A DNA stretch of 64,000 nt from the NCBI GenBank assembly GCA_964016885.1, contig OZ024743.1:268460001-268524000 (forward strand), given 5' to 3'. The stretch comes from Eledone cirrhosa (lineage: Eukaryota). The notes beneath the pieces are model-generated. The model made no database searches and was not told the origin of the DNA. It was given only the letters and a program-made list of their open reading frames with translations. The position numbers and the translations under genes were made by a program. Shown here piece by piece: positions 5,297-63,476 of the stretch; the first letter of the stretch is position 1, and each line of letters starts with the position of its first letter.

Positions 5297-5302
<6 letters not shown>

Positions 5303-5475
5303 AAAAAAAGAAGAAATCGAAAATGCAACTGGAGTGTTATTTTTTTTTTTAAATATATATATTTAAAAAAGAAAAATAAGATCCAGCTGCATTTTCGATT
5401 TCATCTTTTTTTCTTTATACTTTCACTCGTGTAGGACACCTCGGTTATTTTTCATTTTGTAAAAAAGAACCTCAC

Positions 5476-5482
<7 letters not shown>
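5297..5482 (+). mobile_element. Mini palindromic element in (TA)n, probable Penelope 3'-end derivative (family A)
   Basis: Imperfect inverted repeat 5297-5419 (GAAATCGAAAATGCAACTGGA / TCCAGCTGCATTTTCGATTTC) plus one-sided extension 5420-5482; homologous reverse copy at 12693-12898. Confidence 0.7.
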
Positions 5483-6260: not shown

Positions 6261-6566
6261 TGTTTATTTTATAATGGACATCTTTTATTATCTTTGTGAT
6301 TGTTGAACGCTCTTATGTTTATCTGGTAGCTATATATCACTAACCATGTGGTTACTTGTTATGCAATATATGGCGGATGGATGTGAGTATGGTGTCGTTG
6401 TGGGATTATAATCAATAAAGAATGGGTCCTCGATATGTATGGCAAACTACCATTTATTAGGTATGAATCGAAGTTGTAGCTGCCATATAGCAGGTAGTAA
6501 TCGAGTTGTTTGAGACAATCGCAAAGCACACAATAGAGCGGTATGTTAATATATTACTGTCTAGAG

Positions 6567-7480: not shown

Positions 7481-7781
7481 AAGTCATGGGTAACTTGCAG
7501 CCAGCGGGTTGCATGAGGCCTGCAAAATTTTATGAATGGCTCGCCTATGTCACCTAAGTGAAATCTTTCTGATTTTTTTACCCAAACTTTTCAGTCGTAA
7601 TTTATCTTTCTATCATTTTACGACCGAGGCAACGTGTACGAATTGTGAAGAAACAAATCAAAACAATCTGAGTTAACACCCTTTTTAATGTGGGCATGAA
7701 TGTAAATTAGTGCTTGCGGCCCGCCTGATGATGAGTCATATATCATGCGGCCCGCTTCTCGAAAAAGGTTACCCATGCCTA
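7481..7781 (-). mobile_element. hAT (Charlie/Buster-like) MITE, same family, opposite orientation
   Basis: Ends AAGTCATGGGTAACTT ... AGGTTACCCATGCCTA; flanks GACTAGAG (7473-7480) / GTCTAGAG (7782-7789); internal sequence is the reverse complement of 6567-6871. Confidence 0.7.
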
Positions 7782-8582
7782 GTCTAGAGTAAACAAAGCA
7801 GTTAAAAAGTGTGATACCAAGGAAAACGACCGAACGCAGTGGCCACAACAACGATATATATATATATAAAATATAAAGATATACATATACACAAACTAGA
7901 GAAAGTCATAGATATATATATATGTTTTTGGCAACCATTCACGATGTGGCTCAATGACGAATTAATTAAGTAAATAATCAACAATCAGAGAAATATACAA
8001 TAAAGTATGTCCATAGAATCATTTGATAAAATATATACACCATTTCCTCTCCCAATCAGCATAATCAACCACACAAAAAAACAATTAAAACAGGCTATAG
8101 GATTAAAAGACACCTATGAAGAAATAATAATAGATAAATAAACGACAGCTATCTATTCGCGATCAACAGCCATAGAATATTTACCCAACATTTCCAATAG
8201 CACGTGGGAATCGATTAAATATATCGTCAACCATACACAATTAGGTATAAAATCTAAGTTAGAATATGGGTGAGTGTGTTCGTCTATGTGTGTATTTAGA
8301 ATGTTACTAATTTAAACTAGCAAAACCACACTTCATATTAGTACCCTGTATTTGAGCAAAATATAGTGTAGATATTAGGAGATGGAAAAGCCCCATGGTC
8401 AAGCTTAAACCGCATTTGTACGTGTGTATATGAGCTTTTACTTGTCGTTATTGTGAGTGTGGAGGGGTGTCTATTCAGCAGTCTTCGTGTAGTGAGGTGG
8501 GTGTAATTGATTATACCTCTGAATGTGGTGGCCCTGTTTTGGCCAGTGTCAAACTACTAAAATCACGAGACGGATAAAACTA

Positions 8583-9005
8583 TCTCCTTATAATATATAA
8601 CCAGCAATTTCTCTGTCTGTCTGTCCGACAGTGGAAACACGTGCGCGCGTGCGAATGTTTTGGGCGCACGCGTAGAGAGAGAGTGAGAGTGAAAGAAAGA
8701 GACAGACTACAAGAGGGGGATAGCGGGAGGGAGAGAGGGGGGAATTGAGGAGTGCTACAGAAACATATATACATTTCTGTGTGTGTGTAATATATATATA
8801 TATACACACAGAAATATACATATATACGCACAGAAATATATATACATTTCTGTATGTGTAATATATATATATACACACAGATATATATATACATTTCTGT
8901 GTGTGTAATATATATATATACACACACAGAAATATATATACATTTCTGTGTGTGTAATATATATATATACTAGCAGAAAACCGCCCACGGGAGGTTTTCT
9001 GCTAG
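8583..9005 (+). mobile_element. Non-autonomous Helitron-like element with internal palindromic minisatellite
   Basis: A|TC start (TCTCCTTATAATATATAACC..(CTGT)n); ends in a hairpin followed by CTAG. Confidence 0.5.
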
Positions 9006-9597
9006 TCTATATATATAAAACTGAGGATGTCCGTCTCTGTGTGAGTGAGTTTGAATCCCTAAAACTAGAGAAGCACCCAACCGACTGTTTTCAAACTTTA
9101 CACATGTAATACTTATGTTTCACGGGGTGTCCTGAGCAAAAATAATTTCGAATTTTCAATGCCCTAGGGACCGCATTAGGCGATTTAGCGATCTCTCTCT
9201 ATAATTCTTAGTCTGTCTCTTTTTAGATAGATACATACATATAATGTCGCGCCTTTATAATATCTGTCTGTATGTATGGCTGTCTGCTTTACGTCACTTC
9301 CTACAATTCGCTTTGCGTCCAGGACGCGCCCTTATAATATCTGTCTGTATGTCTGGCTGTCTGCTGCCTCCGGTTATTCCGCCACCCTTGCTCAAGACAA
9401 ATCTCACACTCATTTCCCAAGAAGTTGGTAAGTGCACACAACTTCTTCCTCGCGTTTTAAGCCACAGTGTTGATTACTTACGTACCACCAGATCCTTACT
9501 GCTTTGCCAGCCGTGGTTGTGGCAATACTAAGCTTAGCTAAGGCGGTTATATATTTCACAATACCTTATCCCGTGCAACGCCGGGTACCATTGCTAG
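9006..9597 (+). mobile_element. Non-autonomous Helitron
   Basis: 5' TCTATATATATAAAAC; 3' GC hairpin CCCGTGCAACGCCGGG (9570-9585) then CTAG|T; 5' ~190 bp and 3' end shared with 45088-45948. Confidence 0.8.
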
Positions 9598-12478: not shown

Positions 12479-12981
<503 letters not shown>

Positions 12982-12989
12982 TTATATAT

Positions 12990-15325
12990 TTATAATCCCT
13001 CCGATAAGTCGTTCGACCTGCGACGAGTCCACGCCACGACTTTACCATTTAATAAACGCACGCAATTGCCGTCGCAGGTCGATGAACAAACAGAAACACA
13101 ATTTAGTATAGCTAGATCCGAACTTAGAAATATTATAGAACAGTATAGCAAGAAGCATAATAGAATGGAGGCCAAGCAACTGGGAGAAAAATCTGCAAAT
13201 GGCTTGCGTAAGCTCATGCAGCGCTCGCGTAATGGAGAGATAGCATGCTTTCCAACAGACAAGTCTGGCAGAATGTCGGTTGACAGCCTGCCAAACTACA
13301 TCCAGGCAATGCAACCCCACATCACTAACACAAGAGAGGTAACACCATAGGAGCATGAGGATAGAGAAAAAGCCCTCAATGCCCATATGGTGATGTGGAC
13401 GAATATAATGCAGCCCAACAAAAGGACTGCCAACAAGTTCCAGGCCTGGAACAATGACGTGCCGGCGTTGTATGGGCTTCGAAAAGACCATAAAACGGGC
13501 AGTGACCCTGTCACGGGACCACCAACACGGCCAGTCTGTGGAGCTAACATTGCTAGTAACTACAGACTGTCCTACTTCCTCTCCCTGATCATACGCCCCA
13601 TCATTGAAATGTCCCCAGATGTATGTGACAGCACGGAGGACCTCCTCAGCAGAATCGGCGAGAGTAACCGATCTAGGGACCTAACAAACTGCATAATAGG
13701 TAGTATGGATGTTGTGTCCCTGTATCCATCTATTGACGTGGATTTTGCTGTGGAGAAATGCGTAGAAATGATCAGTGAGAGCAATGTTGAGTTCCGTGGG
13801 ATTGATACCAGTGAGCTGGGACTCCTACTTACACTTACCTATAGTAATAATCACCTAGACACATATGACCTTAGCAACCTGTGCCCTACAAGACCAGCAA
13901 GAGGCAGACCACCTACCATTACCTCAATGGCCAAGAAAACCCACACAGATAGATGGAACGGGTGGACCAGAGCCATACGGACACCCGAAAACCACGATGA
14001 ACTGAAGAAAATGATTGCACATGCGGTAGGGGCCAGCATAAAACTAACCCTTAAGGAACATATGTTCAAATTTAATGGAAAAACATATGCCCAAGAGGAA
14101 GGAGCAGCCATTGGTGTTAGCATTGCAAGCGACATAGCTAACTTATTCATGGTATGGTGGGACAGTAGACTTATGCTTAAACTCAAAGAACAATTAGAAG
14201 ACCCCTTAACCCTGATAATGTACTCCCGCTACGTTGATGATATAAACATCGTAGTTAAGACACCCCCACTAGAGAACAGTCAGGAAATAGAGAAAAACAC
14301 AATGGAAAGCATCCAGCAAATAGCTAACTCCATCCACCAGAGTATTAGAGTTACTATAGACTACCCAAGTAAACACCCCAACCATCGATTACCTGTACTA
14401 GACACAGAGCTCTGGTTAGATACCATTAATAACAAAAAACAAATCCTCCATTCCCATTATGCCAAACCCATGACTTCCAAACATCTGATCCACCGAAACT
14501 CGGCTGTTTCGGACCATACCAAAATCAACATACTGATTGCGGATTTGGTACGGGTGATGAGAAACGTGTCCCGCATGTGCAACCCCGAATAACTAGAGAG
14601 ACACATACAACACTTCATCCACCGTATGCAGTTCTCTGGTTACAATCAGAGAGACAAAATCAGAGTTTATAGAGGAGCCAGAACCAAATGGGAAAAAATG
14701 GTAAATAACGACATAAATAGGACCTGCCCCTTGTATAGGAGCAAATTTTGGAATAGAATAGAAAGAACTAGGAATAAGGCTAATAGAATAAACTCATGGT
14801 ATGATAGCAATAAATACCAGAGTGTAATGTTCATCGATACAACCCCTAGAGGTGAATTAGCTTACAAATTTAGAAGGGCCCTAGATAAACATAAACTCAA
14901 TATTAAGATAGTAGAAAGACCAGGTACCTCCGTCAAAACACTTATTAGCAAGACATACCCTTTTCAAAGACCCCCATGTATAGATAAGAAATGTATAACC
15001 TGTAAAATAAGCCCCCATATTAACTGTAAAACTAGAAATGTAGTGTATAGCATAAGATGTACTGAAGGACAATGTAGAGACAAAAATATAGTGTACATAG
15101 GTGAGATAGCTCGTAGTGTAGCGGAACGGATAAATGAACACTGGCGAGACCTTCAAGATAGTAAAGAATCATCTGTACTCTACCAACACGCTAAAATAGA
15201 ACACAAGGGTAAATTAGAGAACATAGAAATAAAAATAGAATCTACACACAGAAAAGACGCAATGTTTAGACAAATCACAGAGGCAATAAACATAAAATAA
15301 TTACAACCAAAATTAAATCGATGAT
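12990..15325 (+). mobile_element. Penelope-like retroelement, RT + C-terminal GIY-YIG, disrupted (family B, copy 1)
   Basis: In-frame ORFs 13066-13350, 13387-14592 and 14626-15300 separated by single stops; DKS motif, YGLRKDHK..RPV, SMDVVSLYPSI, QEEGAAIG, RYVDD, CxxxxCxxC..C linker, VVY..C..YIGE..R...R..EH. Confidence 0.93.
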
Positions 15326-15371
15326 TTCTAAAGAATGAAACAGTTCTAGTCATGTAGAATCTCATCTATAT

Positions 15372-15452
<81 letters not shown>

Positions 15453-16978: not shown

Positions 16979-17464
16979 ATTATATATATATATATATATT
17001 ATATATAATTATATATAAATAGATAGATAGATAGAAGCACGCATACAAACACGCGAGTGTAAATAAATAAATATATATGTATGTGTGTGTGTGTGTGTGT
17101 CTGTTTCAGTGTGTACAGAAGTGTGTATGTGTATATATAATATATCATTGTGCATGCGCTGTACTTCAGTTTATGTAAATCTGCTTGATTTTATGTATTT
17201 GAGTAAAATCTACATGCACACTTACACACATATGATGATTTCGTACGAATGAAACAGTTATAGTCACATGTTGTAAAAGTCAATTCTATAATAAAATGTA
17301 TATTTTTAAATTCTACTAACGTTCTGAGTACCTTTTTTTACATCGGGAATCCACACACTCACACAGAGACACACACAAACACATATATACATACACACAC
17401 ACACGCATATATATATATATATATAAATATATACACACACACACACATCTCTCTCTCTCTCTCG

Positions 17465-19901: not shown

Positions 19902-19994
19902 ATATATATATATTATATATATGTATGTATATATATATAATAAATAATAATAAATAATAATAAATTTGAAAACTAAAATCCAAATATTTTATAT

Positions 19995-20222: not shown

Positions 20223-20306
20223 AACATTATATATATATATATATTTATATATATGTATATATAAATATTATATATATATATGTGTATGTATATATATATA
20301 TATATA

Positions 20307-20405
20307 GTAATAATAATTAAATTGAAGACTAAAATCCAAAGAGGGCTCGATAAGGATAAATATATATCAAATATATAAGAACCGTAGAGCAAATCTGTTA
20401 TTTTA

Positions 20406-20410
<5 letters not shown>
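20307..20410 (-). mobile_element. Mini element in (TA)n (family C), minimal version of 51089-51305
   Basis: GAAGACTAAAATCCAAAGAGGGCTCGATAAGGATAAAT..AAGAACCGTAGAGCAAAT near-identical to 51107-51177, joined to CTGTTATTTTAATA (= 51292-51305). Confidence 0.75.
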
Positions 20411-20436
<26 letters not shown>

Positions 20437-20528
20437 ACGAAGGAAATGTGGTAAGGAACCAGGTGGACCATAATGCACCAAAGTACTCAATACTTAGGGT
20501 TGTAGAGTGGGTAATAGGAACAAGTAAG

Positions 20529-20622
20529 ACCCCGACGGCTGAGCTCAAGCTGTTTCGACGGCTAATTCTGGACTGAATGAACATTTATTCTGGTATTTAA
20601 ATAGCCGAGCTTATCAAGGGGT
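20529..20622 (-). ncRNA. Type I hammerhead ribozyme, U3-A8 variant core, long stem II
   Basis: ACCCC-TTGATAA-[G..CGGCTA...TAGCCGTC]-GAA-ACAGCT tgagctc AGCCGT-C-GGGGT; GUC triplet; one stem III mismatch. Confidence 0.75.
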
Positions 20623-21834
20623 AATTCCATATATGGTCAAACAGATAATCACCGGGATTGGTCACATCACAAGTTAGTAGTAAATCTGTGGTGGCAAATT
20701 GGTGGGTGAAGGGGTCGCTGAACCTGCCGGTAGGAGAAAAGGTGAGAGGAGGTTGAGTAAACCCATTCATGCGTTGGTAGTGCCAGCTACAGCTGGGTGT
20801 GAGGTCAAAGAAGATACTGGGGAGGGGGAGGGGGAGGAAGTCGAAACGGTAAGTAGAACAATGACGGGTAAAACTATAAAAAGTACTGAGAGTGAAAAAA
20901 AAAAAAAAAAAAAAAAAAATAAGCAAAGTCTGGTTACTAAGACTTAAGTCTCTCGCTATTGCTAGGCTAAAGAAATACATAAATAAATAAATAAACAAAT
21001 AAGTGAATAAAACAATAGATAAATAAATTAAAAAAAATATATATATATTTATATATATATAATGAAGAATAAAAAATAAATAAAAATAAACTAGGTGGGA
21101 CGGAAATAAAGGGACCCTTATACGAGGTATAAGTGCGTGTATCGTACGGTGACGGGTCAACAAAGGGGGGGGGGGGCAAAATACTAAAGAGACTACCACG
21201 AAATAATAAAGGTTTCTACCCCAATCACAGGGCCAGCAACCACCCAGAGCAAGAAAGTAAACTAGTACGAGAATATAATTCAGGGTCCCGCAAAAAAATA
21301 CTCGTGCTAACTCTAAGGGTACCGCCACGAAACAAAAAGTCTTATACAAGCTAAATGAAAGATCGTACGAAGTAAAAGTAAAGAACGGAAAATTAATACA
21401 GAACACCCCCACCCCCCCCACCCCACCCCCCAAAAAAAAAAGGGAAAAAGAGGAAAGAAATACTGGATAAACGAGAAATTAAAGCAAAGATGCCACTAAG
21501 AAATATAGAAGGCACGGAAAAAAGGGACAGCGGTCGGAGAAGGGGGCAAGTATCCGAAGTCTAGCACCTCTGATATAAAAAGCGGAGTCAGCCAAATCTA
21601 TCATAGAATAGGGGAGGGGGTGGTAGTGCTGAAGCTACAAGGGACTGAGGGGCTACCTCGGGTGGGCGAAAAAGACGACGACAAAGAAAGTGAACTGGGG
21701 TAGAAGGACTAGGGAGGGATGGGGGGAAGGAGGAAATATAGAGGAAGCGATAAAAAATGTAAAAGAAGATCTTACGACTCCATTGGCAAGCAGGGGTTAC
21801 CCCTTACAAAATAGGCAAGTGGGGTGTTATAGCC

Positions 21835-23387
21835 CTAGTCTACCCCCCCCCCCCCCCCCGGGTCATTATGGGGTTTGAGCGCGAGGTAAGTCCTACGTAA
21901 TCGGTGTTTACATGCAGTAACCAGTTCATCTTTCTTGTTTAGGAGTTGGTCCGTCGAAAACAGCATTTGTAAAGTTTCCTCCGAGCATAAATTGCACGGA
22001 CGGCGTCCTCCCGTGTAAGAGTTGGCTCTGGACAGTAATTTCCAAGTGAGATCATAGTTGATGTTGTTGTCCTTGAGGTCCCATATGTGGCCCGAAAGTG
22101 TAGTGGCGTGACGCCGGGCCGGGTTTCGGAAGGTATGTCTGTGTTGGTATAGCCGGGTCTTGAAGTCACATGCGGTTAATCCTATATAAGCTTTGTTGGA
22201 GGTGTCCGTGCTCACGTTGCACTGGTAGATCACATTACGGTCTCTGCATCTGTTGTCGAGGGGGCAACTGGATCTATCTGGACAGTTGCACCTCCTGGTC
22301 GGCTCTCCACTGTTATTTAGGTTGTTTCTTCCATCGGGGTTGAGTTTTTTGTTGTTGGAGGAGACGATGTTTTGTGCGAAGTTAGGTGTAGTGCTGTAAG
22401 AGAGTTTGATGGTATTTTTGTTAATTATGTTGTGGTAGCGGTGTTGTGGTGGGAAGTGTTTTTCAATGAGCCTAAAGAAAATTTTCCCGATGGGAGTTGT
22501 CACCTCGGCGTTGTGGGGAAGATTGAACCATGTTACATTGCGTGAGCGGCGGTGTCGCCTGCTGGTTCCGCTAATGGGAGCTGGACAGTAGGATATTTCC
22601 TCCCGGAAGCCACTCCGCTTGAGGGCCTGAATGTAGTAAGGCGCATATTCATCGAATATCTTCTCATTGGCTGACAAACGGGATATGTTTTTGACCAGGT
22701 TGTTGGTGATGTTCCTAGGATGGTTAGATCGGCGGTGGATGTAGTGCAGGTTGTCATTGGGTTTCCTGTATGGGTAGTACAGGTCATTATTGAGATCGAG
22801 GGTAACGTCCAGGAAATTAACTCGTGTCTGGGACGTTTGTAGGGTTATTTTAAATCCCCAGTCGCGGAAGAAGCTGATTAATTGTTTACGGACCCGATCT
22901 GTACTATTGGGGTTGTACCCTTTAAGGGTAAGGAGCCCATCATCACGGTACAATCCACCACCGAAGGCAGGAAACATATCGGTGAGTTTGGCTATAAGGA
23001 ATAATCCTATAAGATCTGTAACCTCCGCCGAATGCGTAGCGCCCATGCTGACGTCGAAGGGTGAGTCGGGAGCTCTTTTTATCCATTTGGAGTTGTCAAA
23101 GAGTAAGACTGTCTTCCTGGCGTGGAGGATGATTTTTCTTTCCTGGTCGGTGATGGGCACGAGTGCTTCGGCGAAGTCCAAGGCGGCAGTAAGTAGCGGT
23201 AATGTGATAGAAGCATAGTAGCTCTCTATGTCGAACTGGATAAATTTAGTGTCTCGTTTATCCTCCATATTGCTGAACCATGAGATAACTTCCTGGGTGT
23301 TGATCCATAGGCTAAGTCGGGCGAGTTGCTTGACTTTTGGTATCACGCGGTCTAGGATTTTTTTGCTGATTCTCCGTATGTCGGACT
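21835..23387 (-). pseudogene. 5'-truncated Penelope-like RT + GIY-YIG reading frame (open over ~515 codons)
   Basis: QFDIESYYASI, FDVSMGA..SAE, GLYRDDG, VNFLDVTL, YIHRRSNHP, CNC..CPL...C, VIY.C..YIGLT..FKTR..H, CNLCSEE; frame continues to 23387 (SDIRRISKKILDRV), where the inversion starts. Confidence 0.92.
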
Positions 23388-23755
23388 TTTTTTGGGGGGG
23401 GGGGTTCTGTATTAATTTTCCCTTCTTTACTTTTACTTCGTACGATCTTTCATGTAGCTTGTATAAGACTTTTTGTTTCGTGGCGGTACCCTTAGAGTTA
23501 GCACGAGTATTTTTTTGCGGGACCCTGAATTATATTCTCGTACTAGTTTACTTTCTTGCTCTGGGTGATTGCTGGCCCTGTGATTGGGGTAGAAACCTTT
23601 ATTATTTCGTGGTAGTCTCTTTAGTATTTTGCCCCCCCCCCCCCCCCCTTTGTTGACCCGTCACCGTACGATACACGCACTTATACCTCGTATAAGGGTC
23701 CCTTTATTTCCGTCCCACCTAGTTTATTTTTATTTATTTTTTATTCTTCATTATA

Positions 23756-23786
<31 letters not shown>

Positions 23787-24186
23787 TATTTATTTATTTA
23801 TCTATTGTTTTATTCACTTATTTGTTTATTTATTTATTTATGTATTTCTTTAGCCTAGCAATAGCGAGAGACTTAAGTCTTAGTAACCAGACTTTGCTTT
23901 TTTTTTTTTTTTTTTTCTCTCAGTACTTTTTATAGTTTTACCCTTCATTGTTCTACTTACCGTTTCGACTTCCTCCCCCTCCCCCTCCCCAGTATCTTCT
24001 TTGACCTCACACCCAGCTGTAGCTAGCACTACCAACGCATGAATGGGTTTACTCCACCCCCTCTCCTCTTTTCTCCTACCGGCAGGTTCAGCTACCCCTT
24101 CCCCCACCAATTTGCCATCACAGATTTACTACTAACTTGTGATTTGACCAATCCTGGTGATTATCTCTTTGACCCTATATGCAATT

Positions 24187-24280
24187 ACCCCTTGATAAGC
24201 TCGGCTATTTAAATACCAGAATAAATTTTCATTCAGTCCAGAATTAGCCGTCGAAACGGCTTGAGCTCAGCCGTAGGGGT
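24187..24280 (+). ncRNA. Type I hammerhead ribozyme, U3-A8 variant core, long stem II
   Basis: ACCCC-TTGATAA-(24199-24252 stem II)-GAA-ACGGCT tgagctc AGCCGT-A-GGGGT; perfect 6-bp stem III, 5-bp stem I, GUA triplet (predicted cut after 24275). Confidence 0.8.
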
Positions 24281-24290
24281 CTTACTTGTT

Positions 24291-24327
<37 letters not shown>

Positions 24328-25552: not shown

Positions 25553-26727
25553 CTGCTGCCAGCACCTTCTACGCAGAGGGCTGGGCATGACGTGGCTAAT
25601 GATGCGCAGACATGCGTTGAGGCTGCGACATCTCCCGATATTCTGCCTCAATGGTGAACAGGTGTGGTCGCCGTTTATCAGATGGGCCTTTCCGCAGCTC
25701 ATTCCTTTGACTGAGCTGCAGTCCTGGGTCAAGAAGAGACAGAGACTGGGTGGCTGGCACCTGGAATGTTGCCACTGCTCTCTACCAAGCGGGCAATGCG
25801 ATTAGAGGAACTTCCACTCTCGAGTTCTATAGAGGATTAGTGGTGGGCAAGTGCGATGACGCACTCGGAGAAGCTTTGGGCCTCGACGAAGTCGAACTGA
25901 CCAGTCTGTACCGGAGGACTTTTGGGCCGGGGACGATGGACAATTTCCAGAAATCCCTCGCTTGGCAGTGCTACCAGGGGGCACTGCCGGTTCGGGATAA
26001 ACTCTACAGACACGGAAGTGCAGTCAGACGGATCTGGCCAAGATGCGCACAGAACTACGAAGCCGTTCTGCACGCACTTGTCCAATGTCCGTGCATTACT
26101 GACTTGTGGAGTTATGTCGAACAGCTACTGTCGCGTGTGGAACGAATCCGGCTATCGGCCGAGTCCATAGTGAAGATCGATCCACCGCCTTCCTTAGGTC
26201 AGGAAGAGCAGGAAATTTTCCTGTCTGGTGGCAGTTGCGAAAGAGGTTATATGGTGGACCAGGTTAAAAGGACTGAAGACAGACACTTTTCTCTTCGGCC
26301 AATCCCTCTTCAACTTTTTCAGGTTTCACCTGGAAAGGAAGGTGAGGGTGGAGAGAGAAGGCTTCCCCCCAGTACATTTGCTAAAAGGTGGGTGAATGTG
26401 GAGAGAATGGCTCCTGTGAATGGGCCTACTCTGACCATGCGCCTATAGGCTAGCTAACTTGAGGAGAGGGGTGCTCTCCCTGGGTGCCCTAGAAGCGCAG
26501 GGTGGTTCAGGATTGGTGGGGTACCCGAGTCAGCCCAGGGTCGTCCACTCCTTATCGGGGAATTTATTTTGTTATATTTATGCATAGTTTATTTTGCATT
26601 TTTATATTTTCATTGTTAAATTAGTCTTGCCATTGTGCACTTTTACTCGACCTTATTGTAAACCCCCACTGTCCCTGTTTTGTATTGTCCCCTACATGTC
26701 GGCCCTTGTGGCTAATAAATGAAATCA
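25553..26727 (+). mobile_element. L1/Tx1-clade LINE 3' fragment (post-RT region, CCHC zf-RVT, 3'UTR)
   Basis: GLGMTWLMMRRHALRLRHL, W..YQGALPVRDKL.RHG....PRC....E.VLHAL..C; AATAAA at 26714 then (ATT)n; frameshifted; (ATT)n also on the 5' side. Confidence 0.8.
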
Positions 26728-26829: not shown

Positions 26830-29800
26830 GTTCTGGAACAAAAAAGATAATTGGCAATACGGGAAGGGGCCCCAGGTTATCACAGCCTGGGCCCGCTCGT
26901 CATCGTGCCATTGTAATTCAGCCAAACAAGGCATTTAGTCTTGGCTGCTGGAACGTACGGAAGCGTCCTGAACGAAGGACCGCTCTTGTTGCAAAGGAGC
27001 CTCGACGTTACGATCTTGACATCGTGGCTTTATCTGAGACGAGGTTAGCTGGAGATGGCCATCTTACAGAATTTTGTGGAGAATATACATTCTTCTGGAA
27101 AGGAAGAGATGAATGAACCAGAAGAGAGGCTGGGGTAGGATTTGCTGTTAAGACTGTTCTTGTGAATAAATTAGAAGAATTCCCAGTAGGGATTAGTGAG
27201 CGTCTTATGTCCATGAGAATTCCGCTGAACAAAGGAAGATATGCGACGCTGGTGAGTGTGTATGCTCCAACTATGAATTCTGTCGATGAAGAAAAAGTGT
27301 CCTTTTACCATGCCTTGAAAGGTGTTTTAAGAAATATCCCTCAGGCAGACAAAGTCATCGTGCTTGGTGAATTTAATGCTAGAGTGGGTCGGGATTTTAA
27401 CACATGGAATGTAATCGGAAGGCATGGGGTGGGAAAGTGTAACAACAATGGTATGCTCCTGCTGCAGATGTGTGAGGAGCTGGATCTGTGTGTTACCAAC
27501 ACCATATTCCAACAAAAGAACAAATTCAAGACCACATGGATGCATCCTGCATCTAAGGAATGGCATCTTTTGGACTACATCCTAGTCAGGATGCGTGACA
27601 AACAGGATGTGCAGTGTGTTCGTGCTCTTCGTGGAGATGAGTGCTGGACGGACCACCGCCTGGTACGCGCAAAAGTGAAACTAATCACTAAACGTAAAAT
27701 CCGGGCTCCTGGTGTTGCCCTGCCCAAAAGATTGAATGCTGCTCGTCTTAAGGATAAAAATGTGAAGAGGATATTGGATGAAGAGATGCAGGCTGCAGAT
27801 CTTGGTGAGGATTGGCCGACCCTTAAAAAGTCGGTTTATGATGTAGGCAGGCGTGTTCTGGGATTGATGCAGAGAAAACAGCAGGACTCTTTTAATGAGA
27901 ATGATGTACATATAGAAGACGTGTTGGCTGATAAGAGGCGTGCTCTGTCACGCTACTTGACGGCAAAACTACAGGAGAGGAATACGTTGCATGAGGAACT
28001 CAAGGATGTAAAATCACGTGTTAGGCGGAGTCTTTCTCAGATGAAGGATCACTGGTGGAGTGAGAAGTCTGGTGAGATACAAACTGCGTCAGATTCCAAT
28101 AACACAAAGCAGTTGTACAGTCTCTTGCGTGAGGTTTATGGACCGTCTTCTTCTCTGGTGACACCGCTTCGCAGCAAGGATGGCAAAGAACTTCTTCGTG
28201 ACTCACAAGGAATGCTACGAAGGTTGCGAGAGCACTTTGATGATCTTTTGAATCAGCCGTCTGTCGTCAGTGAAGATTTTCTCAATCTCATTCCAGAAAG
28301 TGCTGTGAAAGTAGCTCTCGCAGAACCTCCGACGCTTGTGGAGGTTGCACTGGCTATCTCGAAGCTGAACAGTGGAATGTCTCCAGGTATGGATGGCATA
28401 CATGCTGAGCTCCTACAATATGGTGGTGAGAGACTCCTGCAACATGAAGATGTTGCAGGAGTCTCTCTTTGTTTGGCAGGATATGGGTTAATGAATCCGT
28501 ACATGAGGACTGGGGAGATGCAGTAATGGTGGTCTTGTACAAGGGAAAGGGTAACAGGAATGATTGTGGGAACTACAGAGGTATATCATTGCTTTCTGTC
28601 GTAGGGAAAGTTTTATGTAGGGTGCTTCTGGACCGACTGCTGACAGACATTGCAGATTGTGTTCTTCCTGAAAGTCAATCTGGTTTTCGTGCTGGACGCG
28701 GCACTACTGATATGATCTTCTCAGCTAGACAGCTCCAGGAGAAATGCATGGAACAAGGTTTGGATCTGTATCAGGTATTTGTCGATCTGACAAAAGCTTT
28801 CGATACTGTTAACAGAGATGCATTATGGAAGGTTCTCCAGAAACTTGGTTGCCCTGATAAGTTCCTTGCTTTAGTTAGGTCTTTCCATGACGACATGAAG
28901 GCTTGGGTTAATGTCGGAGGTAACATGTCGGAGCCTATCTCAGTAAAAAATGGAGTGAAACAGAGGGATATTCCAGCACCGACCCTGTTTGCCATATACT
29001 TTGCAATGGTTTTCTGTATTGCATTCAGGAATTGCGAGTATGGTGTTTACATCCGATATCGAACCTCAGGCAGCATATTTAACATCAGGCGCTTTGCTGC
29101 AAAGACAAAAGTATTTACATTAATTATAAGAGACGTCTTGTATGCAGATGATTGCGATCTTGTAGCGCACACAGAGAGTGATATGCAGCACATTTTGAAT
29201 GCATTTTCTGACGCTTGCACTGCCCTGGGATTGACTGTCAGTCTTAAGAAAACCGTCGTCATGTACCAACCTACCCCTGGTAAGCAGTACAGTGAACCGA
29301 ATATCTATGTGTATGGTAAACGACTTGGAGTGGTTGATCAGTTTGTCTACCTGGGAAGCGCTGTCAATCGATACAGCAACCTTGATAGTGAAATCTCACT
29401 TAGGATTAGGAAAGCAAGTGATGCTAGAAAGGCGACTCTGGGGTCAGCGAGACATATGCAAGAGGACAAAGTTAAAGGTGTACAAGGCATGTGTGCTCTC
29501 TTGTCTTCTTTATGCCTGCGAGACCTGGGTCACATATCGACACCACCTTAAGCAATTGGAGCGTTTCCATCAGATGTGTCTCAGACGGATCCAGGGCGTT
29601 CACTAGAGGGACCACATCAGTGATGTCGAGATTTTGGAAAGCTTTATGTGTGACAGTATAGAAGCTCTTGTGCTTAAGCAACGACTCCGTTGGAGTGGTC
29701 ACCTTGCCAGGATGAAGGATTCTAGAATACCAAAACAACTCTTTTATGGAGAGTTAGTTAAAGGAAAACAACCGCCACATAAACCAAAAAAGAGGTATAA

Positions 29801-34935: not shown

Positions 34936-35505
34936 GTCGCATCACCGCCACCGCTGCCTCGGTATCGACATCACCGCCACCACTGTCTCAGTATCGCCAA
35001 CGCCGCTAGTCTCTGCTGGCTACCACTTCCACATTATAGAATTCCTACTACTAACAAAGAGGAAGGCATCAAAATATATAGATAGACTCAAAAGAAAAAA
35101 GAAAAAACAAACAACAAAAGCAGCACAGCAACAACAGTAAAAAACGAGAAAAACAGAGAAAAACAAAAACAAAAAAAGAAACCCCAAAAACGTAAAGAAA
35201 ATAAGAATGAAGAGAGAAGCAGGCGGACGGACAGAGAAGAGGGGGGGAAAAGTAAAACTTAAAAAACAAAAACTAAGTCGGACATTCGAATACTACATTA
35301 CAATGAAACTTATGCTTATTCATTTTTGGGGCCCTTTCTGCCCGTGTGTTTGTTTGTTTATGTGTGTCCGTATACAGCGTGGTGATAATGCCACACAAGG
35401 GCCAAGTGGGATGGCGGATCCACAGATGGCTATGTAAACATACATTCGCCAATCCTCGATAAGAGTGTTTAAATATCGAACATAAACAGTTCGAATAACG
35501 GTGAA

Positions 35506-38500
35506 ATGGAGACTAGAACGTCATGTGACAGACTCTCACCCAACAGGTGCCCCCTGGCTCAGCAGCAGGAACCTGACTGTCAACGAAATACTGCTGATGT
35601 TGGAGGAAGAAGAAGAAGGAAAGGGGCCAGAACCAACTGGACGAAAGAATTGAATAGAACTGTTATGCAATGCTACCTGAAAAGTAACCCCAAGGAGAGG
35701 GGCTACAGGAGACGGATGCATAACATCTGGAACGAGATTGGTTTATTTAAATTAGATGAACAAAAATTGGCCGGGCAGGCTCGGGTAATAAGAACTAATG
35801 GGTGGATAAGCGAGCTGGAACTGGAGGAACTGAGCAGAGAGAATGGCTTGGAGATGGCGGGTGTAGTATGCCAGACAAGCGAGCCGGCGGGAAATGAAGG
35901 TGAGGAGGTCCTGAGAGCGAAGGAACCACCCGAAGCAGACAATGATCTGAATACTGAGATAAATAATACCTGGAACAGAGATACGGCCACTGAGGAGATG
36001 AATGCTGACGGGCTAGGACAAGATTCGGTTGACATCCTAAATTTAGTGGTAGATGAGTTGAACAATGATAGTGGGAGACCTATGAACCTAAGATTTGTAG
36101 ACAGGAAAAAGTTAAAAGAAACAACAGCTAAGGTAAACAAAGTCATCCCATACCTTGAGGCGAGGAGTCTTCACCAGTGCAACAATATCCTCAAAGCAAC
36201 AGCAAATACGGTGAGGAAACTACTTGGTATAAAAGCGAGAGGAAACAACAGACAAGAAAGAGCAGAGCCGTGGTGGAAGAAGCGACTGAGTGGGCAAATC
36301 GGGGAAATGAGAAATGACATAGGAAAGCTTGAGTCACTACTGAATGGGACACTAAAAAACATAGGCACTAAAAATAGACTGGAAATAAAATACAAAACTA
36401 GGAGTAAAAAGCTAAATATTATCATAGAGGAATTGAAGCAACGCATTGTAGCAAAGAGTGCCAAAATCAGGCGATACGAGAACAGAGTCAGTCAGTATAA
36501 ACAGAACCGCATGTTCGACAACAACCAGAAGATGCTGTTTGGACAGCTTGAGGGGAAAGAAAGAGGCACCGACTTGACCCCTGGGGCGGAACAAGCTAAA
36601 ACATTCTGGAGAGGAATATGGGAGCAGGATGTTAGACACAATGCCCAGGCAGGGTGGATTGAGACAGTACAGAGGGAGATCGGTGAGCAGGCACAGCAAC
36701 AGACTGATTTGAGTATCACAGTTGAAACTCTTAAGGGGCAAGCCAAAAAACTAACCAACTGGAAATCACCAGGCCCAGATGGTGTGCAGGGGTATTGGAT
36801 TAAACATTTAACATCCCTCCACCCGAAGCTGACGGCCATGTTCAATGACTGCTTGGTGTCGGGTGAGGTGCCAGAGTGGTTGACAAAAGGTACCACAGTT
36901 CTGATAATGAAAGACCAAATCAAGGGTAATGATGTCACCAACTATAGACCTATCACATGTCTGCCCGTAATGTGGAAACTGTTGACGAGCATTGTGTCTG
37001 AGGAAATCTACCATCACCTCCACACAAACAACTTGTTGCCGGACGAACAGAAAGGATGCCGAAAGAAGTCACGTGGTACAAAGGACCAGTTGCTTATTGA
37101 TAAGATGGTAATGGGGAATTGCAGGAGGAGACACACTGATCTTGCCATGGGATGGATAGACTACAGAAAGGCATTTGACATGGTGCCTCATTCCTGGATC
37201 ACCAAAAGCCTGGAGATCTTCAGGGTGGCAGATAACATCAGACAGTTGCTGGGCAGGAGTATGGGGTCCTGGGAGACAGAGTTGACATCAACTGGAGTAT
37301 CCTTGGGAAGCGTGAAGATCAAGAGAGGTATCTTCCAGGGAGATAGCCTGTCCCCTCTGTTGTTTGTCCTTGCCCTGATGCCCTTGACCATTATGCTGCG
37401 AAAAGTGAGAGCAGGATACAGGTTGGGAAGGGGAGAGCTTACCATCAATCACCTCCTCTTCATGGACGACCTTAAGCTCTTCGGGAAAAGTGAGAAGGAG
37501 TTGGATGTGCTTGTTGACACTGTCCGTATTTTCAGCAGTGATATATGTATGCAGTTTGGTATTGGTAAATGTGGAGTCATTGTGATGAGGAGGGGTAGGT
37601 TGAGCAGAAGTAACGGGATCCAGATACCAACAGGTGAGATGATAAAGGAAATTGACTCTGAGGAAGGATACAAGTATTTGGGCGTTCTGGAGGCTGATGG
37701 CATAAAGAACAAAAAAATGAAGGAATTGTTAAGAACTGAATACATTCGGAGAGTAAGGAGCGTATTGAAGTCACATCTGAACAGCAGAAATGCCATAAGC
37801 GCAGTAAATTCCCGAGCTGTGTCTATTATTAGGTACAGTGCGGGAATTCTGAGATGGAATGTTGCTGAACAAAAAGAAATGGATAGGAAGACTAGGAAGC
37901 TATTGACTATCTACAACATGTTCCACAAGAGGAGTGATGTCGATAGACTCTACCTAAGGAGATCTGAGGGTGGAAGAGGTCTTATCAGCATAGAGGACTG
38001 TGTTCAGATGGAGAAAAACAACCTATACAAATACGTGACCTATAGTAAGGAGCCAATGCTCAGAGCTGTACTGAAGGAGGGGACAGTAGGCCAGGGGATA
38101 CCCAAGGAGGAAATAACATCAAGGAGGAAGAGCAGCCTTAAGGGAAAATCCCTTCATAGTACCTTCTTTGAGAAAACTGAATTTAGAGATCCACAGACAT
38201 GGAACTGGTTGAGAAGAGGAGACCTCAAAAAGGCTACAGAAGGAATGCTAATGGCTGCGCAGGAGCAGGCCCTCAAAACGAAGTGGTTGAAGCACCATAT
38301 CTACAAGGAGGAGGCTAGCCCACTGTGCAGGATCTGTGGAGAGAGAGAGGAGACTGTGGCTCACATTGTGTCCGAGTGTAAACACCTAGCCCAGACCCAC
38401 TATAAGGGCTGGAGACACGATGTGATGGGCAGGGTGATCCACTGGCACCTGTGCAAAGTAAACAATCTACCACATTCTGAGAAATGGTATGAGCATAGGC

Positions 38501-47173: not shown

Positions 47174-49495
<2,322 letters not shown>

Positions 49496-49881: not shown

Positions 49882-49916
<35 letters not shown>

Positions 49917-51088: not shown

Positions 51089-51092
<4 letters not shown>

Positions 51093-51305
51093 ATAATAAT
51101 AAATTTGAAGACTAAAATCCAAAGAGGGCTCGATAAGGATAAATGTATATCAAATATATAAGAACCGTAGAGCAAATATCTATTAAAATAACAGATTAAA
51201 GTTTAAGCCAAGAATCGCTGCTTTCACCCTTAACGGGATCTTCTGAAACTAACAAAGGGTGAAAGCAGCGATTCTTTGCTTAAACTTTAATCTGTTATTT
51301 TAATA
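51089..51305 (-). mobile_element. Mini palindromic element in (TA)n (family C)
   Basis: 51-bp arms 51181-51231 / 51255-51305 (one mismatch) plus one-sided extension 51089-51180. Confidence 0.8.
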
Positions 51306-51311
51306 AGTATA

Positions 51312-57960: not shown

Positions 57961-60153
57961 ATGGCCATGAAACTCTAATAGAAACCTATCGTAGTTGTCA
58001 AGATTTGTAATCACTTTGTATCGTATTATATATGTTTGGCTAAATTTCCGGAAGATGCAACAATCAGGTGAGATAATGATTTAGCGATTTAATGATAAAA
58101 TTAAATAATAGCCGTATTTCATTATAGCTATGAACATTTATTGCTATATAACAATGACAACAATCTCCAAATGGATATTAATAATGTAGTCATTTATGCA
58201 TTGTCCATGTAAGACTATACAAAAGACATTTAATCTGATAGTGAAGTTATTTTCCGAAACGAGGTATGCAGGTATATAATGCTTAAATATATCTTGGCCC
58301 AGTAATACTCTGATCAAGGTCCAGTTTGACAATGACAATATGACAGAATAAGGATGGGTCACAAGAAGCAAAAAAAGAAAAAAATGCTGGCCATAAATTT
58401 AAAAAAAAAATAGTATAGAAGGAAAAGGTTGATTAATCTATCGAGGGAATGGTGGATTGAAGCAATCAACAAGTCTGAAATTCAATACATAACGAAATGC
58501 GTGTGGGCAGCCATTATGTAGTTAATCAAACTGCTATAAAAAATAACCATGTCTGACTTATTTCAAACAATGTCTCCTTAAAAATAAGGTATATGTTGGA
58601 CAATGGACTTTTATATATACAGAAACATGGAATATATTTGATAATAGGTTAATCAATGACGGCTGGCTTGGGGCTAATTTATAAGACAAAGATTTTTTGA
58701 CACAATGATTACTTTCAAGTAAATCCGTACTCAGAACACGATGTATAAATTTAGTGATTGATATCCTACCTGATGAATTGTAACCAAATTTCCAAGTATT
58801 GTGTAGCCAAATAACTCCAACCTTGTTTGGTTTAGCTGGTTGGGAAGTAGTTATTTGCCTGTAAACATTTACTCTACATTAGAACGAGTGTTTAGTGGGT
58901 GCATTGGTGGTTTATATCCTCTGACAGATACTGATTTGTATCTAAAGCTAGCAAATTTAATTGAAAGCTGTCAAATTCCATTTGACAGTGGAATATAATT
59001 ATCAATTTTAGACATTGGTAGCGCTGCAGTCTTTTTACTATCAGTGGAATATTTGGGTACAATGTTTAGACTAGTCTCTCATTAGTGGATATTTCGCAGC
59101 TAAATGTTTCTCATGGGAAAATAATCCTTCTTATGTAAGACGATATTTGATCGTTAGACCAGTATCGCCAGTCTTATAAGCAAAAATCAAATGAATAAAA
59201 CATTATGGAGGCAGCAAAGTAGATCTACGTGATCACTCGACTCGCAAGACTAGCAATTAAATATACTTTACATCTTGAGATGGAAAGACATTGGATAATG
59301 TAGACCTGCAATGTTTTATATCAGAATACTATATGGAGCGATCACTGTTTAAAACCCTGCCTCATAGATCTGTTAGATGAGAGCTGAATGTAATGTGACA
59401 TCAAAAGAAGAAGAATGTCAGTTCCAGTAAAACAAGGAGACAATGATGGAATTGTGGATGGAAAATGTGTCGAAAATGGAAAACGTTAGTATAGAGCAGT
59501 GATATAAATGACAAATATCTTTAATTCATTCCTTCGTTTCTCTCTCTGTTTGAAATACTACGTCATACATATTTTTTCTCATAATGGTAAAAATGTATAT
59601 TCATCAAAAAATTGTATAATACATATAATAGTAAATCAATCAGTGTAATAATTTAGTTCATATCAATAAGGTTAAATATATGTCACATATGTTTTAATCA
59701 TTTTTTTAAAGATGCCGCACGCTTAACATTGCTGGAAATGTCAGTCAAATACCCTTCAAAATACACGCTACCGTCTTAAAAAAGAAAGATCTATTCGTTA
59801 ATATAGTCATCGATATACGATATTTAAAAAAGAAAATTACCAGATGGTCACGGATGAAACTCATTCGCCTGTTACTTTACTGTATGATGGATAACAACAA
59901 CAAAAGTAATTATTTTTTCTAAAACCCTACGTACCATGACTCCTGATTTAAACAAAGATATGTGGAAGAACGAATTGTAGGAAATTCGGTCTTCCATTAC
60001 CAGAACAAAGGTGAATAAACAAATAGACACACACACACACATAAATATATAAATATATATAACGGAAGAAATGTGGTAAGGAACCAGGTGGACCATAACG
60101 CACCAAAGTACTCAATACTTAGGGTAGTAGAGTGGGTAATAGGAACGAGTTGG

Positions 60154-60249
60154 ACTCCAACAGCTGAGCTCAAGCCGTTTCGACGGCTAATTCTGGACTA
60201 AATGAACATTTTTATCCTGGTATTTGAATAGCCGAGCTTCTCAAGGGGT
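60154..60249 (-). ncRNA. Type I hammerhead ribozyme, U3-A8 variant (partly decayed)
   Basis: ACCCC-TTGAGAA-...-GAA-ACGGCT tgagctc AGCTGT-T-GGAGT; GUU triplet, stem I mismatch. Confidence 0.65.
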
Positions 60250-62146
60250 AATTCCAGATATGGTCAAAGTGAAAGTCACAGGGATTGGTCAAAAGTTTGT
60301 AGTTGAGACATAATAATTCTATGATGGCAATTTGTGGAGGGAAGGGGTAGCTAAACCTGCCAGTAGGAGAAAGAGGGAGAGGGGGAGGAGGAGACCCATT
60401 CATGCGTTGATAGTGCCGGCTACAGCTGGGCGTGAGGTCAAAGAAGATACTAGGGAGGGGGAGGAAGTCGAGACAGCAAGTAGAACATGCGCCTTATTAC
60501 ATCCAGGCCCTCAAGCGGAGTGGTTTCTGGGAGGAAATATATTACTGTCCAGCTCCCATTAGCGGAACCAGCAGGCGACACCGCCGCTCACGCCATGTAA
60601 CATGGTTCAATCCTCCCCACAACGCCGAGGTGACAAGTCCTATCCGGAAAATATTCTTTACGCTCATTGAAAAACACTTCCCAATACAACACCGCTACCA
60701 CAACATAATTAACAAAAATACCATCAAACTCTCTTACATCACTACACCAAACTTTGCACAAAACATCGTCTCCTTCAACAACAAAAGACTCAACCCCTAT
60801 GGAAGAAATAACCTAAATAGCAGTGGAGAGCCGACCAGAAGGTGCAACTGTCCTGATGGATACATTTGCCCCCTCGACAACAGATGCAGAGATCGTAATG
60901 TGATCTACCAGTGCAACGTGAGGACGGACACCTCCAAAAAAGCTTATATAGGATTAACCGCTTGTGACTTCAAGACCCGGCTATACCAACACAGACATAC
61001 CTTCCGAAACCCGGCCCGGCGTCACGCCACTACAATTTCGGGCCACATATGGGACCTCAAGGATAACAACATTACCTATGATCTCACTTGGAGATTACTG
61101 TCCAGAGCCAACTCTTACACGGGAGGACGCCGTCCGTGCAATTTATGCTCGGAGGAAACTTTACAAATGCTGTTTTCGACGGACCAACTCCTAAACAAGA
61201 AAGATGAACTGGTTACTGCATGTAAACACAGATTGCGTAGGACTTACCTCGCGCTCAAACCCCATAATGACCCGGGGAGGTAGACTAGGGCTATAACACC
61301 CCACTTGCCGATTTTTTAATGGGTAACCCCTGCTTGCTAAGGGAGACGTAAGATCTTCTTTTATATCTTTTTATCGCTTCCTCTATATTTCCTTCTTCCC
61401 CCATCCCTCCCTAGTCCTTCCACCCCAGTTCTCTTTCTTTGTCGTCGTCTTTTTCTCGCTCACCCGAGGCAGCCTCTCGGTTCTTTGTAGCCTCAGTACC
61501 CCGACCCCCTTCCCTTATTATATGATAGATTTGGCCGACTCCGCTTTTTATAGTAGATGTGTTAGACCCCGGATACTTGCCCTATTATCCGACCGCTGCC
61601 CCTTTTCCGTGCTTTCTATATTTCTTAGTGGTATCTTTGCTTTAATTTCTCGTTTATCAGTATTTTTTTGGGGGGGGGGGGGGATGGGGGGGATTCTGAA
61701 TTAATTTTCCGTATCAAATTTTACTTTTACTTCGTACGAGCTTTTATGTACCTTGCACTAGAACTTTTGTATCGTGGCGGCACCCTTAGAGATAGTATTA
61801 GTATTCTTTTTCGGGACTCTGAATTATTATTTCGTATTAGTTTACTTTTTTGCACTGGGTGGTTGCTGGCCTTGTGCCTGGGGTAGTAACTTTTATTATT
61901 TCGTTTTAGTTTCTTTAGTATTTTGGTCCCTCACTTGTTGACCCGTCACCGTAAGATACTCGGTTTATTACTTATACCTCTTAAAAGGGTCTCATTTTAA
62001 TTCCGTCCCACCTAGTATATATTTTTTTTTTTTTTTTTTAAGCCTAGCAATAGTGAGAGACTTAGGTCGTAGTAACCAGAAATTGTTTATTTATTTTTTT
62101 TTTTTTACATTTAATTGCTTTTTAACACCCAGTATTTTTCTATATA

Positions 62147-62333
62147 AAGGGCGGTGGATTGGCAGTATCGGTAGAGGGTCGGACGCCATGCTTTCAAGCA
62201 TAGTTACGTCCCTTTACGATCTGAGTTCAAATCCCGCCGAGGTTGACTTTGCCTTTCATCCTTACGGGGTCGATAACATAAAGTACCAGTAATGCACTGG
62301 TTAATTGCTGGCCTTGTGCCTAAAGTAGAAACA
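62147..62333 (+). mobile_element. tRNA-derived SINE inserted in the Penelope 3' region with a 16-bp TSD
   Basis: A/B boxes, Meta-like core; AGTATTTTTCTATATA at 62131-62146 and 62334-62349. Confidence 0.9.
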
Positions 62334-62605
62334 AGTATTTTTCTATATATTTACCCCTTATTGTTCTACTTACTGTCTCGACTTCCTCCCCCTCCCCCTC
62401 CCTAGTATCTTCTTTGACCTCACGCCCAGCTGTAGCCGGCACTATCAACGCATGAATGGGTCTCCTCCTCCCCCTCTCCCTCTTTCTCCTACTGGCAGGT
62501 TTAGCTACCCCTTCCCTCCACAAATTGCCATCATAGAATTATTATGTCTCAACTACAAACTTTTGACCAATCCATGTGACAATCACTTTGACCATATCTG
62601 GAATT

Positions 62606-62701
62606 ACCCCTTGAGAAGCTCGGCTATTCAAATACCAGGATAAAAATTTTCATTTAGTCCAGAATTAGCCGTCGAAACGGCTTGAGCTCAGCCGTCGGGG
62701 T
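62606..62701 (+). ncRNA. Type I hammerhead ribozyme, U3-A8 variant core, long stem II
   Basis: ACCCC-TTGAGAA-[..CGGCTA..TAGCCGTC]-GAA-ACGGCT tgagctc AGCCGT-C-GGGGT; perfect stems I and III, GUC triplet (predicted cut after 62696). Confidence 0.82.
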
Positions 62702-63476
62702 CCAACTCGTTCCTATAAATATATATATATATGTGTGTGTGTATGTGTGTGTCTGTTTGTGTTTGTGTGTATGTATATGTGTGTGTGTGTGTATGTGTGC
62801 ATGTGTTTATCTGTGTGTTTGTGTTTATTTATATATTCATTTGTTTATTCACCTTTACTGGTGATGGAAGATCGAGCTTCCTACAACTTGTACACTCCTT
62901 AAAAACACTATGATGTGTTTATGGAACCTTGATCTAAACGAATGATCTATATTATTGGTCTAAACACATGATCTATATTAAATTGAATCAGAGAAAGGCA
63001 TCACAAATATTATCATCAAATGCTCATCATTCAGAAAATAGCATAGGAAAGCGAGCATTTTTGTTCTACATATTTTTCAATCAAACTTGAACTATCGTAT
63101 TCCTATTTGACCGGCAATTGTAATTGGGATGAATGAAGTACGTCATTTAACATAATTCATTCATCGTTTCTATGATATTTATGAGAATCATTAACAATGG
63201 CAACAAGTTATTCGCTTTGTATTCCCAACAACGATAGACTCAGCAAATTGTCAGAGCTTTTCATTGACGTAAAAGGTCATCTTGTCGAAATATTGTTTTG
63301 ATTGGACGGCATTGTTGTAACGATATTCATACAATTGTCTCTTCTATATCCACACACACAGACACACACAGAGACACAGACACACACACAGACATGGAAA
63401 AACACTTTTGTCGTATTCGTGTGAGAATGCAAGAGTAGTTGAATGCTGTGCGTGTATATATATATGTGTGTATGCG

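Follow-up and report, generated by a model that had tools for sequence, protein, structure and literature searches.

Organization of the family D insertions

The window analysed here is a 64,000-nucleotide stretch of the Eledone cirrhosa genome (contig OZ024743.1, positions 268,460,001 to 268,524,000), and contains two copies of a Penelope-like element, family D, inserted in (TA)n microsatellites, as well as short insertions of two further families, A and C. Self-comparison and alignment place D copy 1 at approximately 20437–24294 and D copy 2 at 60062–62716 (window coordinates throughout). Each is composed of two 3′ segments in head-to-head orientation, 5′-truncated at the join and with (TA)n on the outside, a structure that was reported in a preliminary description of this locus and that we reproduce to within 1–2 nucleotides (nt). 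The two arms of each copy end at different positions, and we describe a hairpin motif that is duplicated in related elements, where it lies just beyond most ends of both types. The features of the two copies are as follows (ORF, open reading frame; UTR, untranslated region; RT, reverse transcriptase).

20410..20436, (TA)n target tract at the long end of D copy 1
20437..23393, minus strand, long arm of D copy 1, 5′-truncated, with ORF, 3′ UTR, hammerhead region and tail
20437..20513, minus strand, tail of D copy 1, 76–77 nt, hairpin 1 and spacer
20482..20508, minus strand, hairpin 1 of D copy 1, with ACTC/GAGT lower stem, TT bulge and TAC/GTA upper stem, lying 5 nt beyond the short end
21835..23370, minus strand, open RT-GIY-YIG frame, 511 amino acids, 5′-truncated
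23394..24294, plus strand, short inverted arm of D copy 1, stopping at GTTCCTA, then (TA)n
24188..24279, plus strand, type I hammerhead-like motif of D copy 1, a U3-A8 core variant from a descriptor scan
24293..24324, (TA)n target tract at the short end of D copy 1
60062..60487, minus strand, long inverted arm of D copy 2, with hairpin 1 at 60107–60133
60488..62716, plus strand, short ORF-bearing arm of D copy 2, with a hammerhead motif at 62607–62700
about 62146–62334, dispersed short repeat inside the short arm of D copy 2

The short ends read GTTCCTA(T) followed directly by (TA)n, at 24294 and 62716, and the long ends lie 76–78 nt further, at 20437 and 60062. The predicted hammerhead cut in D copy 1 falls after 24275, 19 nt before the short end. 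The ORF is carried by the long arm in copy 1 and by the short arm in copy 2, bearing out the earlier observation that the asymmetry is independent of which arm is the ORF-bearing one. Identity between arms is 95.4% and 97.7% within the two copies, compared to 83.9–86.1% between copies, and 41 of the 42 informative two-versus-two columns group the arms by copy, with one grouping them by end type; the arms of one copy thus belong together, yet differ. At the central junction the arms overlap by 1 nt in D copy 2 and meet in an ambiguous T-run in D copy 1, there is no palindrome at either junction, and the truncation points of the two arms are unrelated. D copy 2 itself sits in the simple-repeat center of an older inverted pair (59975–60024 and 62839–62886), the arms of which are 86% alike and each contain a degenerate hammerhead-like core pointing outward; this pair may represent an earlier Penelope insertion of the head-to-head kind.

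Inverted repeats and (TA)n tracts are known to trouble assemblers (PMC8557442, considered here in part), and the structure could in principle be an assembly fold-back artefact, or reflect two insertions in one (TA)n tract that were later homogenized by gene conversion. An artefact would make the arms identical, and they differ by 2–5%; nor is there any (TA)n between them. We also compared raw reads from two runs of one study with the same species label (X11 and X12) over 20240–23520, accepting reads from 82% identity such that related subfamilies are included. Eleven of the 15 joints listed are opposite-strand joints, and they recur at identical coordinates in both runs with overlaps of 0–3 nt, although three of them touch an AATT site at 20565–20568 and may be ligation chimeras, and orientation is absent from the listing. 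No read bridging the D copy 1 junction is seen among the joints listed, and we nonetheless regard an artefact or conversion as very unlikely indeed.

The same reads show the short end as a common terminus. At 20514, X11 has 3117 loose ends and X12 has 2696, with (TA)n as their consensus, in each run the largest of the six loose-end rows listed, and contigs of X1 and of a sample with a second organism label (X5) have the same short end. Of molecules starting at 20567, about 44% (3117/7077) and 38% (2696/7167) are short-ended; the long end lies in a skipped stretch (20240–20447) and is not countable in reads. Over the terminal 110 nt of D (20460–20569) the depth is higher than in the next bin by a factor of about 20 in X1 and 12 in X5, and loose ends of a diverged subfamily occur at 20520, which suggests that many mini-elements or related families have the D terminus alone in common. 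Depth jumps at 21911, 22169 and 20567 are probably restriction sites of the reduced-representation libraries and not biological signals, as judged from CATG and AATT sequences in the window.

Family D is a member of the Hydra clade

The D frame (564 residues from stop to stop) has a YRDD motif at residue 194 and a VIY...YIG motif at 433, the order expected of an RT followed by a C-terminal GIY-YIG endonuclease. Hydra-clade elements are distinguished by a CxCX5C linker, absence of the CCHH motif, and CxxC/CxH, RWK and DKT motifs, and are reported to insert in (TA)n (section 11 of PMC8557442), as D does. The CxCX5C linker is present in both D copies and in 114 of the 120 homologs listed, and CxxC-E-N-CxH in both copies and 117 of the 120; there is a single cysteine between GIY and YIG, and CCHH is absent. 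Both D copies are truncated before the positions of the RWK-type and DKT-type motifs, which occur in 72 and 74, respectively, of the 75 full-length sequences among these homologs. Matches reach E values of 1e-123, whereas a Pfam search with the D protein gives no family match. Family D is thus assigned by its motifs to the Hydra clade. Neptune, Nematis and Naiad were considered and set aside, as the CX2-5CxxC linker, CCHH and N-terminal endonuclease are all absent from D. No D relatives were found in viral contigs. A SINE-like repeat points to an animal host, probably a cephalopod.

A descriptor scan identifies a putative hammerhead of the U3-A8 variant, a form described in PMC4209133, in the short arms of both copies; among the 150 of 192 Rfam matches listed there is no hammerhead, and all are sub-threshold and microsatellite-driven. 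The variant is unlike the hammerhead of the octopus family Hydra-1_Obim as listed in the material of Craig et al. (2021; PMC8557442), but D otherwise closely resembles the Hydra elements of that study in its GIY-YIG lacking CCHH, the CxCX5C and CxxC/CxH motifs, the 3′ hammerhead, the (TA)n target and the short unit. Inverted 5′-truncated copies, and tails that are often present at one end only, are also described there; the tails are given as 30–40 nt, compared to 65–92 nt here. Back-to-back insertions that pair a long with a short end are a known pattern of Penelope elements, and the geometry alone adds little.

A hairpin motif is repeated between the hammerhead and the start codon

Relatives of D were collected in a profile search of metagenomes (the best 80 of 469 matches), giving 78 loci that form 58 families at 80% identity. 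In these elements the segment from the hammerhead to the start codon contains a motif made up, in order, of a TA-rich stretch, GCTC, one side of the upper stem, the loop and the other side of the upper stem, followed by a 2-nt bulge, GAGC and ACT, and the motif is repeated, with the copies (GCTC...GAGCAC) 55–83 nt apart. Among the 44 5′ UTRs with 200 nt present, 43 have at least one hairpin and 33 at least two, a count not collapsed by family and in which five UTRs scored with three motifs represent overlapping calls on one 3′ half; the background inside ORFs is 7 per 100 kb. The exact twin pattern occurs in 42 of the 78 loci, compared to about 1700 stretches in 596 gigabases of prokaryote genomes. 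Scans of viral and prokaryote collections with the twin motif, used as background only, gave 171 loci, none with a D-like ORF.

Covariation provides the evidence that the motif folds. In 40 non-redundant hairpins with long enough loops, the three upper-stem pairs set by a 2-nt bulge are Watson-Crick in 38, 32 and 25 cases, compared to shuffle means of 19.1, 11.5 and 9.8, and none of 5000 shuffles matches the observed pairing, with relatedness among families only partly removed; there is no such covariation at bulge sizes of 0, 1, 3 or 4 nt. Loop lengths are about 8–36 nt. Eight terminal stretches folded as single strands did no better than their shuffled versions (z −0.87 to +1.30), so the predicted hairpin is based on covariation and not on energy. 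Within the window, a structural scan that included both strands yields exactly four hairpins, one in the tail of each D and C copy, a few nt beyond the short end, compared to a mean of 0.2 in shuffled windows. In D the lower stem has compensatory A-U where relatives have G-C. As judged from sequence, the tail corresponds to hairpin 1 and its spacer.

Among published Hydra consensus sequences, Hydra-1_Ajap starts at the motif, and Hydra-2_Amil and Hydra-2_Ajap end after hairpin 1. The twin hairpin is not mentioned in the sections and supplement text of PMC8557442 that were covered, and the words 'hairpin' and 'stem-loop' do not occur in that supplement text. We found no description of a twin-hairpin determinant of Hydra ends in the literature searched, and it is the twin hairpin as putative determinant of both insertion ends that appears to be new here, the geometry and priming at two sites being already known.

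Most insertion ends are fixed relative to the hairpins

The 3′ ends of ORF-bearing arms in the related loci (designated L and a number) were placed against the 5′ UTR of the same family and scored within −2 to +8 nt of a hairpin. Twenty-one of the 27 ends lie −1 to +5 nt before one, nine at hairpin 1 (short ends) and 12 at hairpin 2 (long ends), and all ends are on the motif in 16 of the 20 families. This scoring interval takes in 7% of all positions and 21% of the TAT/ATA positions of the template, and the agreement has P = 3e-10 under the stricter TAT/ATA null. In these elements the long end is just before the second hairpin, with about 20–50 nt from the hairpin start to the ATG and the ORF following; the placement indicates that the long end is internal and not terminal, and either end type can carry the ORF. 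This departs from the preliminary description, in which one priming position was taken to be terminal and the other internal at a TA. Both ends do lie in TA-rich stretches, but with 21% expected by that property and 21 of 27 observed, TA alone does not explain the choice of site.

All six window insertions (two each of D, A and C) combine a long and a short arm, for which random 1:1 pairing gives a probability of about 0.016, and the related locus L043 is a head-to-head long-plus-short insertion of an unrelated family, such that seven of seven pairs are unlike (about 0.008 if independent at 1:1). This frequency bears on whether there is only a single priming event, with the second arm made by fold-back self-priming or a template switch and either start site chosen independently each time. 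Junction palindromes have been read as self-priming (PMC3846280), and those of two further Penelope-type families in the window, B and E (49469–49536 and 49982–50024), fit such a process, as does the lack of a second arm in most near-full-length relatives. The D junctions, without a palindrome and with arms truncated at unrelated positions, the abutment of both outer ends on (TA)n at fixed sites, and the unlike pairing all point the other way, and we consider a single priming event quite unlikely.

The 5′ boundaries also fall near the hairpins, with less precision. Eighteen were placeable in near-full-length relatives, a set selected for long ORFs (22 rows minus L001, L011, L015 and L064, which are internal or cross-family matches), and seven of the 18 are inside or at most 14 nt from a hairpin. 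In C copy 2 and L018 the long arm starts at hairpin 1. Several related loci contain further copies of interest. Unit-length Hydra copies in L054 (981–3378), L060 (3022–5569) and L069 (675–3156) begin and end at or near a hairpin, and have unrelated TA-rich flanks, no pseudo-long terminal repeat (pLTR) and no inverted arm; unit-length direct repeats of about 2.4–2.5 kb are present in many contigs. Two copies of one family (L052 at 1426 and L053 at 2282) share the same start just before the hammerhead core, and in L047 (2936–3294) and L064 (2450–2463) a second, different Hydra element is positioned tail to tail across the same (TA)n tract.

These boundaries could alternatively be set by the endonuclease, were it to recognize the motif in DNA or cDNA and to cut a few bases before it while resolving an intermediate. 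The tail is attributed to 'EN-mediated resolution' (EN, endonuclease) in PMC8557442, and the Drosophila endonuclease needed the tail for plasmid cutting, as recounted in PMC11167929 (also considered in part); the unit-length copies in L054 and L060 begin and end near a hairpin, and in L001 a (TA)n run directly precedes hairpin 2, as such cutting would allow. However, loops of about 8–36 nt and a covarying, bulged stem suit a folded single strand better than a duplex site, the 5′ boundaries scatter within and up to 14 nt before the hairpins while the 3′ ends fall within 7 nt, and in the anole the genomic ends match measured starts of reverse transcription (PMC11167929). We therefore view cutting by the endonuclease as rather unlikely to be what fixes the ends.

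A model for paired priming

The interpretation that we favor, with a probability of roughly 0.6, is that the D and C copies are dead, 5′-truncated Hydra insertions, with ends before tandem hairpins that likely dock two RTs on one RNA, the cDNAs being joined head to head. Its sequence-level basis is the clade motifs, the fixed ends, the twin motif with its covarying stem, and the location of ends −1 to +5 nt before it; from these we infer the binding and priming steps, including the hairpin as a protein-binding signal with one subunit per hairpin. Each hairpin would dock one enzyme subunit, and reverse transcription would start just 5′ of it, with the TA-rich stretch pairing with the (TA)n primer. 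The two ends of one (TA)n break would take one site each, the cDNAs would stall at occupied hairpins, and the two truncated products would then be joined head to head, for which a microhomology of 0–3 nt would suffice. New copies stop short of hairpin 2, which requires a template with both hairpins on the downstream side of the ORF; such an RNA would be a tandem read-through or a circle, and circular templates have been proposed (PMC4209133). With one site per end, unlike pairs are expected whichever arm runs further, as are arms derived from the same template and stalling at the hairpins, and 5′ boundaries produced by stalling are expected to be less sharp than the 3′ ends. The most specific form of the proposal, in which the duplicated hairpin loads two RT-endonuclease subunits at fixed offsets on one tandem or circular RNA and each primes one (TA)n end, is tentative, and we would give it slightly less than even odds.

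Several observations weigh against this interpretation. First, six of the 27 ends are off the motif; L031 and L061 represent one internal junction and L062 a sub-repeat, but L030, L034 and L037 are without explanation. Secondly, long-plus-short pairing rests on seven insertions, six of which were chosen in the preliminary description, and the read ratio of short ends cannot tell fixed from random pairing. Thirdly, 16 of the 18 placeable 5′ boundaries lack an inverted arm; short-read contigs are biased against inverted repeats and may hide some, but the head-to-head structure is evidently not obligatory, and the near-universal rule first suggested for it is not supported beyond the window. Hairpin 2 is not seen in D itself, both window copies being 5′-truncated, and covariation cannot separate RNA from single-stranded DNA. 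Family A has the long/short geometry without the hairpin motif, the Penelope-type ORF families B (12995–15375 and 47337–49536) and E (49763–51033) lack that geometry, and the listing of Penelope-13_HM puts a hammerhead about 102 nt from each end of a curated consensus, an apparently symmetrical arrangement. Two further points come from the Anolis Poseidon element PAc (Frangieh et al. 2024; PMC11167929): no start-site difference was seen between strands, giving no one-site-per-strand rule by itself, and the PAc RNA start is not homologous to the cut DNA, whereas the short ends described here share up to 3–4 nt with (TA)n.

PAc is nevertheless the closest biochemical parallel in its two internal reverse-transcription start sites, which bound the tail in vitro and lie downstream of a hammerhead, and in its AT-rich target; top and bottom target strands are both cut and extended, and a dimer is predicted. 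The PAc starts are in an AC-rich stem loop inside the ORF, whereas the Hydra ends are in the 5′ UTR, each before its own hairpin, and neither the pairing of one site with one strand nor a head-to-head join is shown for PAc in the sections covered. The earlier proposal of double priming, in which both strands are primed at two fixed RNA positions, is plausible and agrees with these data, but is largely anticipated by them in its two sites and the extension of both strands. Penelope integration beyond first-strand priming is described as still open in the covered parts of PMC8557442 and PMC11167929. In Penelope families of Adineta vaga (Arkhipova et al. 2013; PMC3846280), self-priming is proposed at junction palindromes, which D lacks, and target-site duplications are visible, whereas in D they are hidden by (TA)n.

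If the most specific form of the proposal is correct, one architecture yields the one-sided tail, the head-to-head mini-insertions and the hairpin-bounded unit-length copies, and offers a compact, transferable signal by which a telomerase-related enzyme would prime at fixed sites. As a cis-element the twin hairpin is concrete and open to mutation, and it predicts where both ends fall in about 20 families; the question of why the tail is at one end only becomes directly testable by altering the hairpins. It also offers a simple rule for placing Hydra element boundaries inside microsatellites and for recognizing tiny non-coding derivatives such as family C. In L1 twin priming a single RNA is likewise primed from both ends of a break, and joining of the cDNAs creates an inversion, but the second site varies, being selected through base pairing, and the arms are non-overlapping. 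In D and C the two sites are fixed, and each arm is a copy of the same terminal segment.

Families A, B, C and E

The insertions of families A and C are listed below.

5298..5481, family A copy 1, short arm left and long arm right, without a Hydra hairpin
12694..12896, family A copy 2, long arm left and short arm right, outer ends as in copy 1 and a different center
20307..20409, family C copy 2 (length 103 nt), with a long arm that consists of the tail alone, from the hairpin at 20342–20390, and a short arm of about 15 nt
51090..51307, family C copy 1, with a minus-strand long arm that carries the hammerhead (by eye) and the hairpin at 51125–51173, and a plus-strand short arm

In both families the two copies have common outer ends and differing central junctions, with one arm longer than the other, and the geometry of D had been correctly recognized in them (at 5297 and 12693 for A, and 51089 and 20307 for C). 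The tails are about 65 nt in A and 90 nt in C. The two families had been regarded as unrelated witnesses, which does not hold for C: its copies of 103–218 nt have the Hydra hairpin at the terminus by scan, and a Hydra-type hammerhead, identified by eye, with one core change. Given this hammerhead and the same hairpin as D, C probably derives from a Hydra element and does not bear independent witness to the mechanism. A third long end of family C, 32 nt in length, is at 19953–19984 and is followed by a dispersed short repeat. Family A has no ORF, its arms being too short to reach one, and no hammerhead match, and no Hydra hairpin was found in the structural scan; six short A motifs gave no telling match in the supplement text of PMC8557442 that was covered. 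Only the geometry of A fits a Penelope-like element, and A is not assigned to a clade.

Family B is also inserted in (TA)n, and with a CX2-5CxxC linker and two cysteines in GIY-YIG is Neptune/Nematis-like. Its two copies differ at the 3′ end: copy 1 switches right after the stop codon to a hammerhead-like end that recurs at 17235–17266, and copy 2 carries a hammerhead of its own, with a 5′ fold-back at 49469–49536. Family E is a head-to-head GIY-YIG fragment with a 43-nt junction palindrome at 49982–50024; its inverted arm diverges about 215 nt before a hammerhead-like motif, placing it outside the long/short rule.

Other repeats in the window

Retrotransposon frames of the non-LTR type (LTR, long terminal repeat) are located at 35473–38898 (a 1141-amino-acid open RT with a zinc-binding tail), 27117–29551 (a frameshifted endonuclease-RT pair) and 25711–26448 (a fragment). 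A repeat at 6471–6949 and 7385–7868 has an internal segment that is inverted in one copy relative to the other, at a TCTAGA site. At 8958–9183 a 36-nt CTAG-bounded hairpin lies between TA runs beside a dispersed repeat, and we take the hairpin and its neighboring repeat to be Helitron-like.

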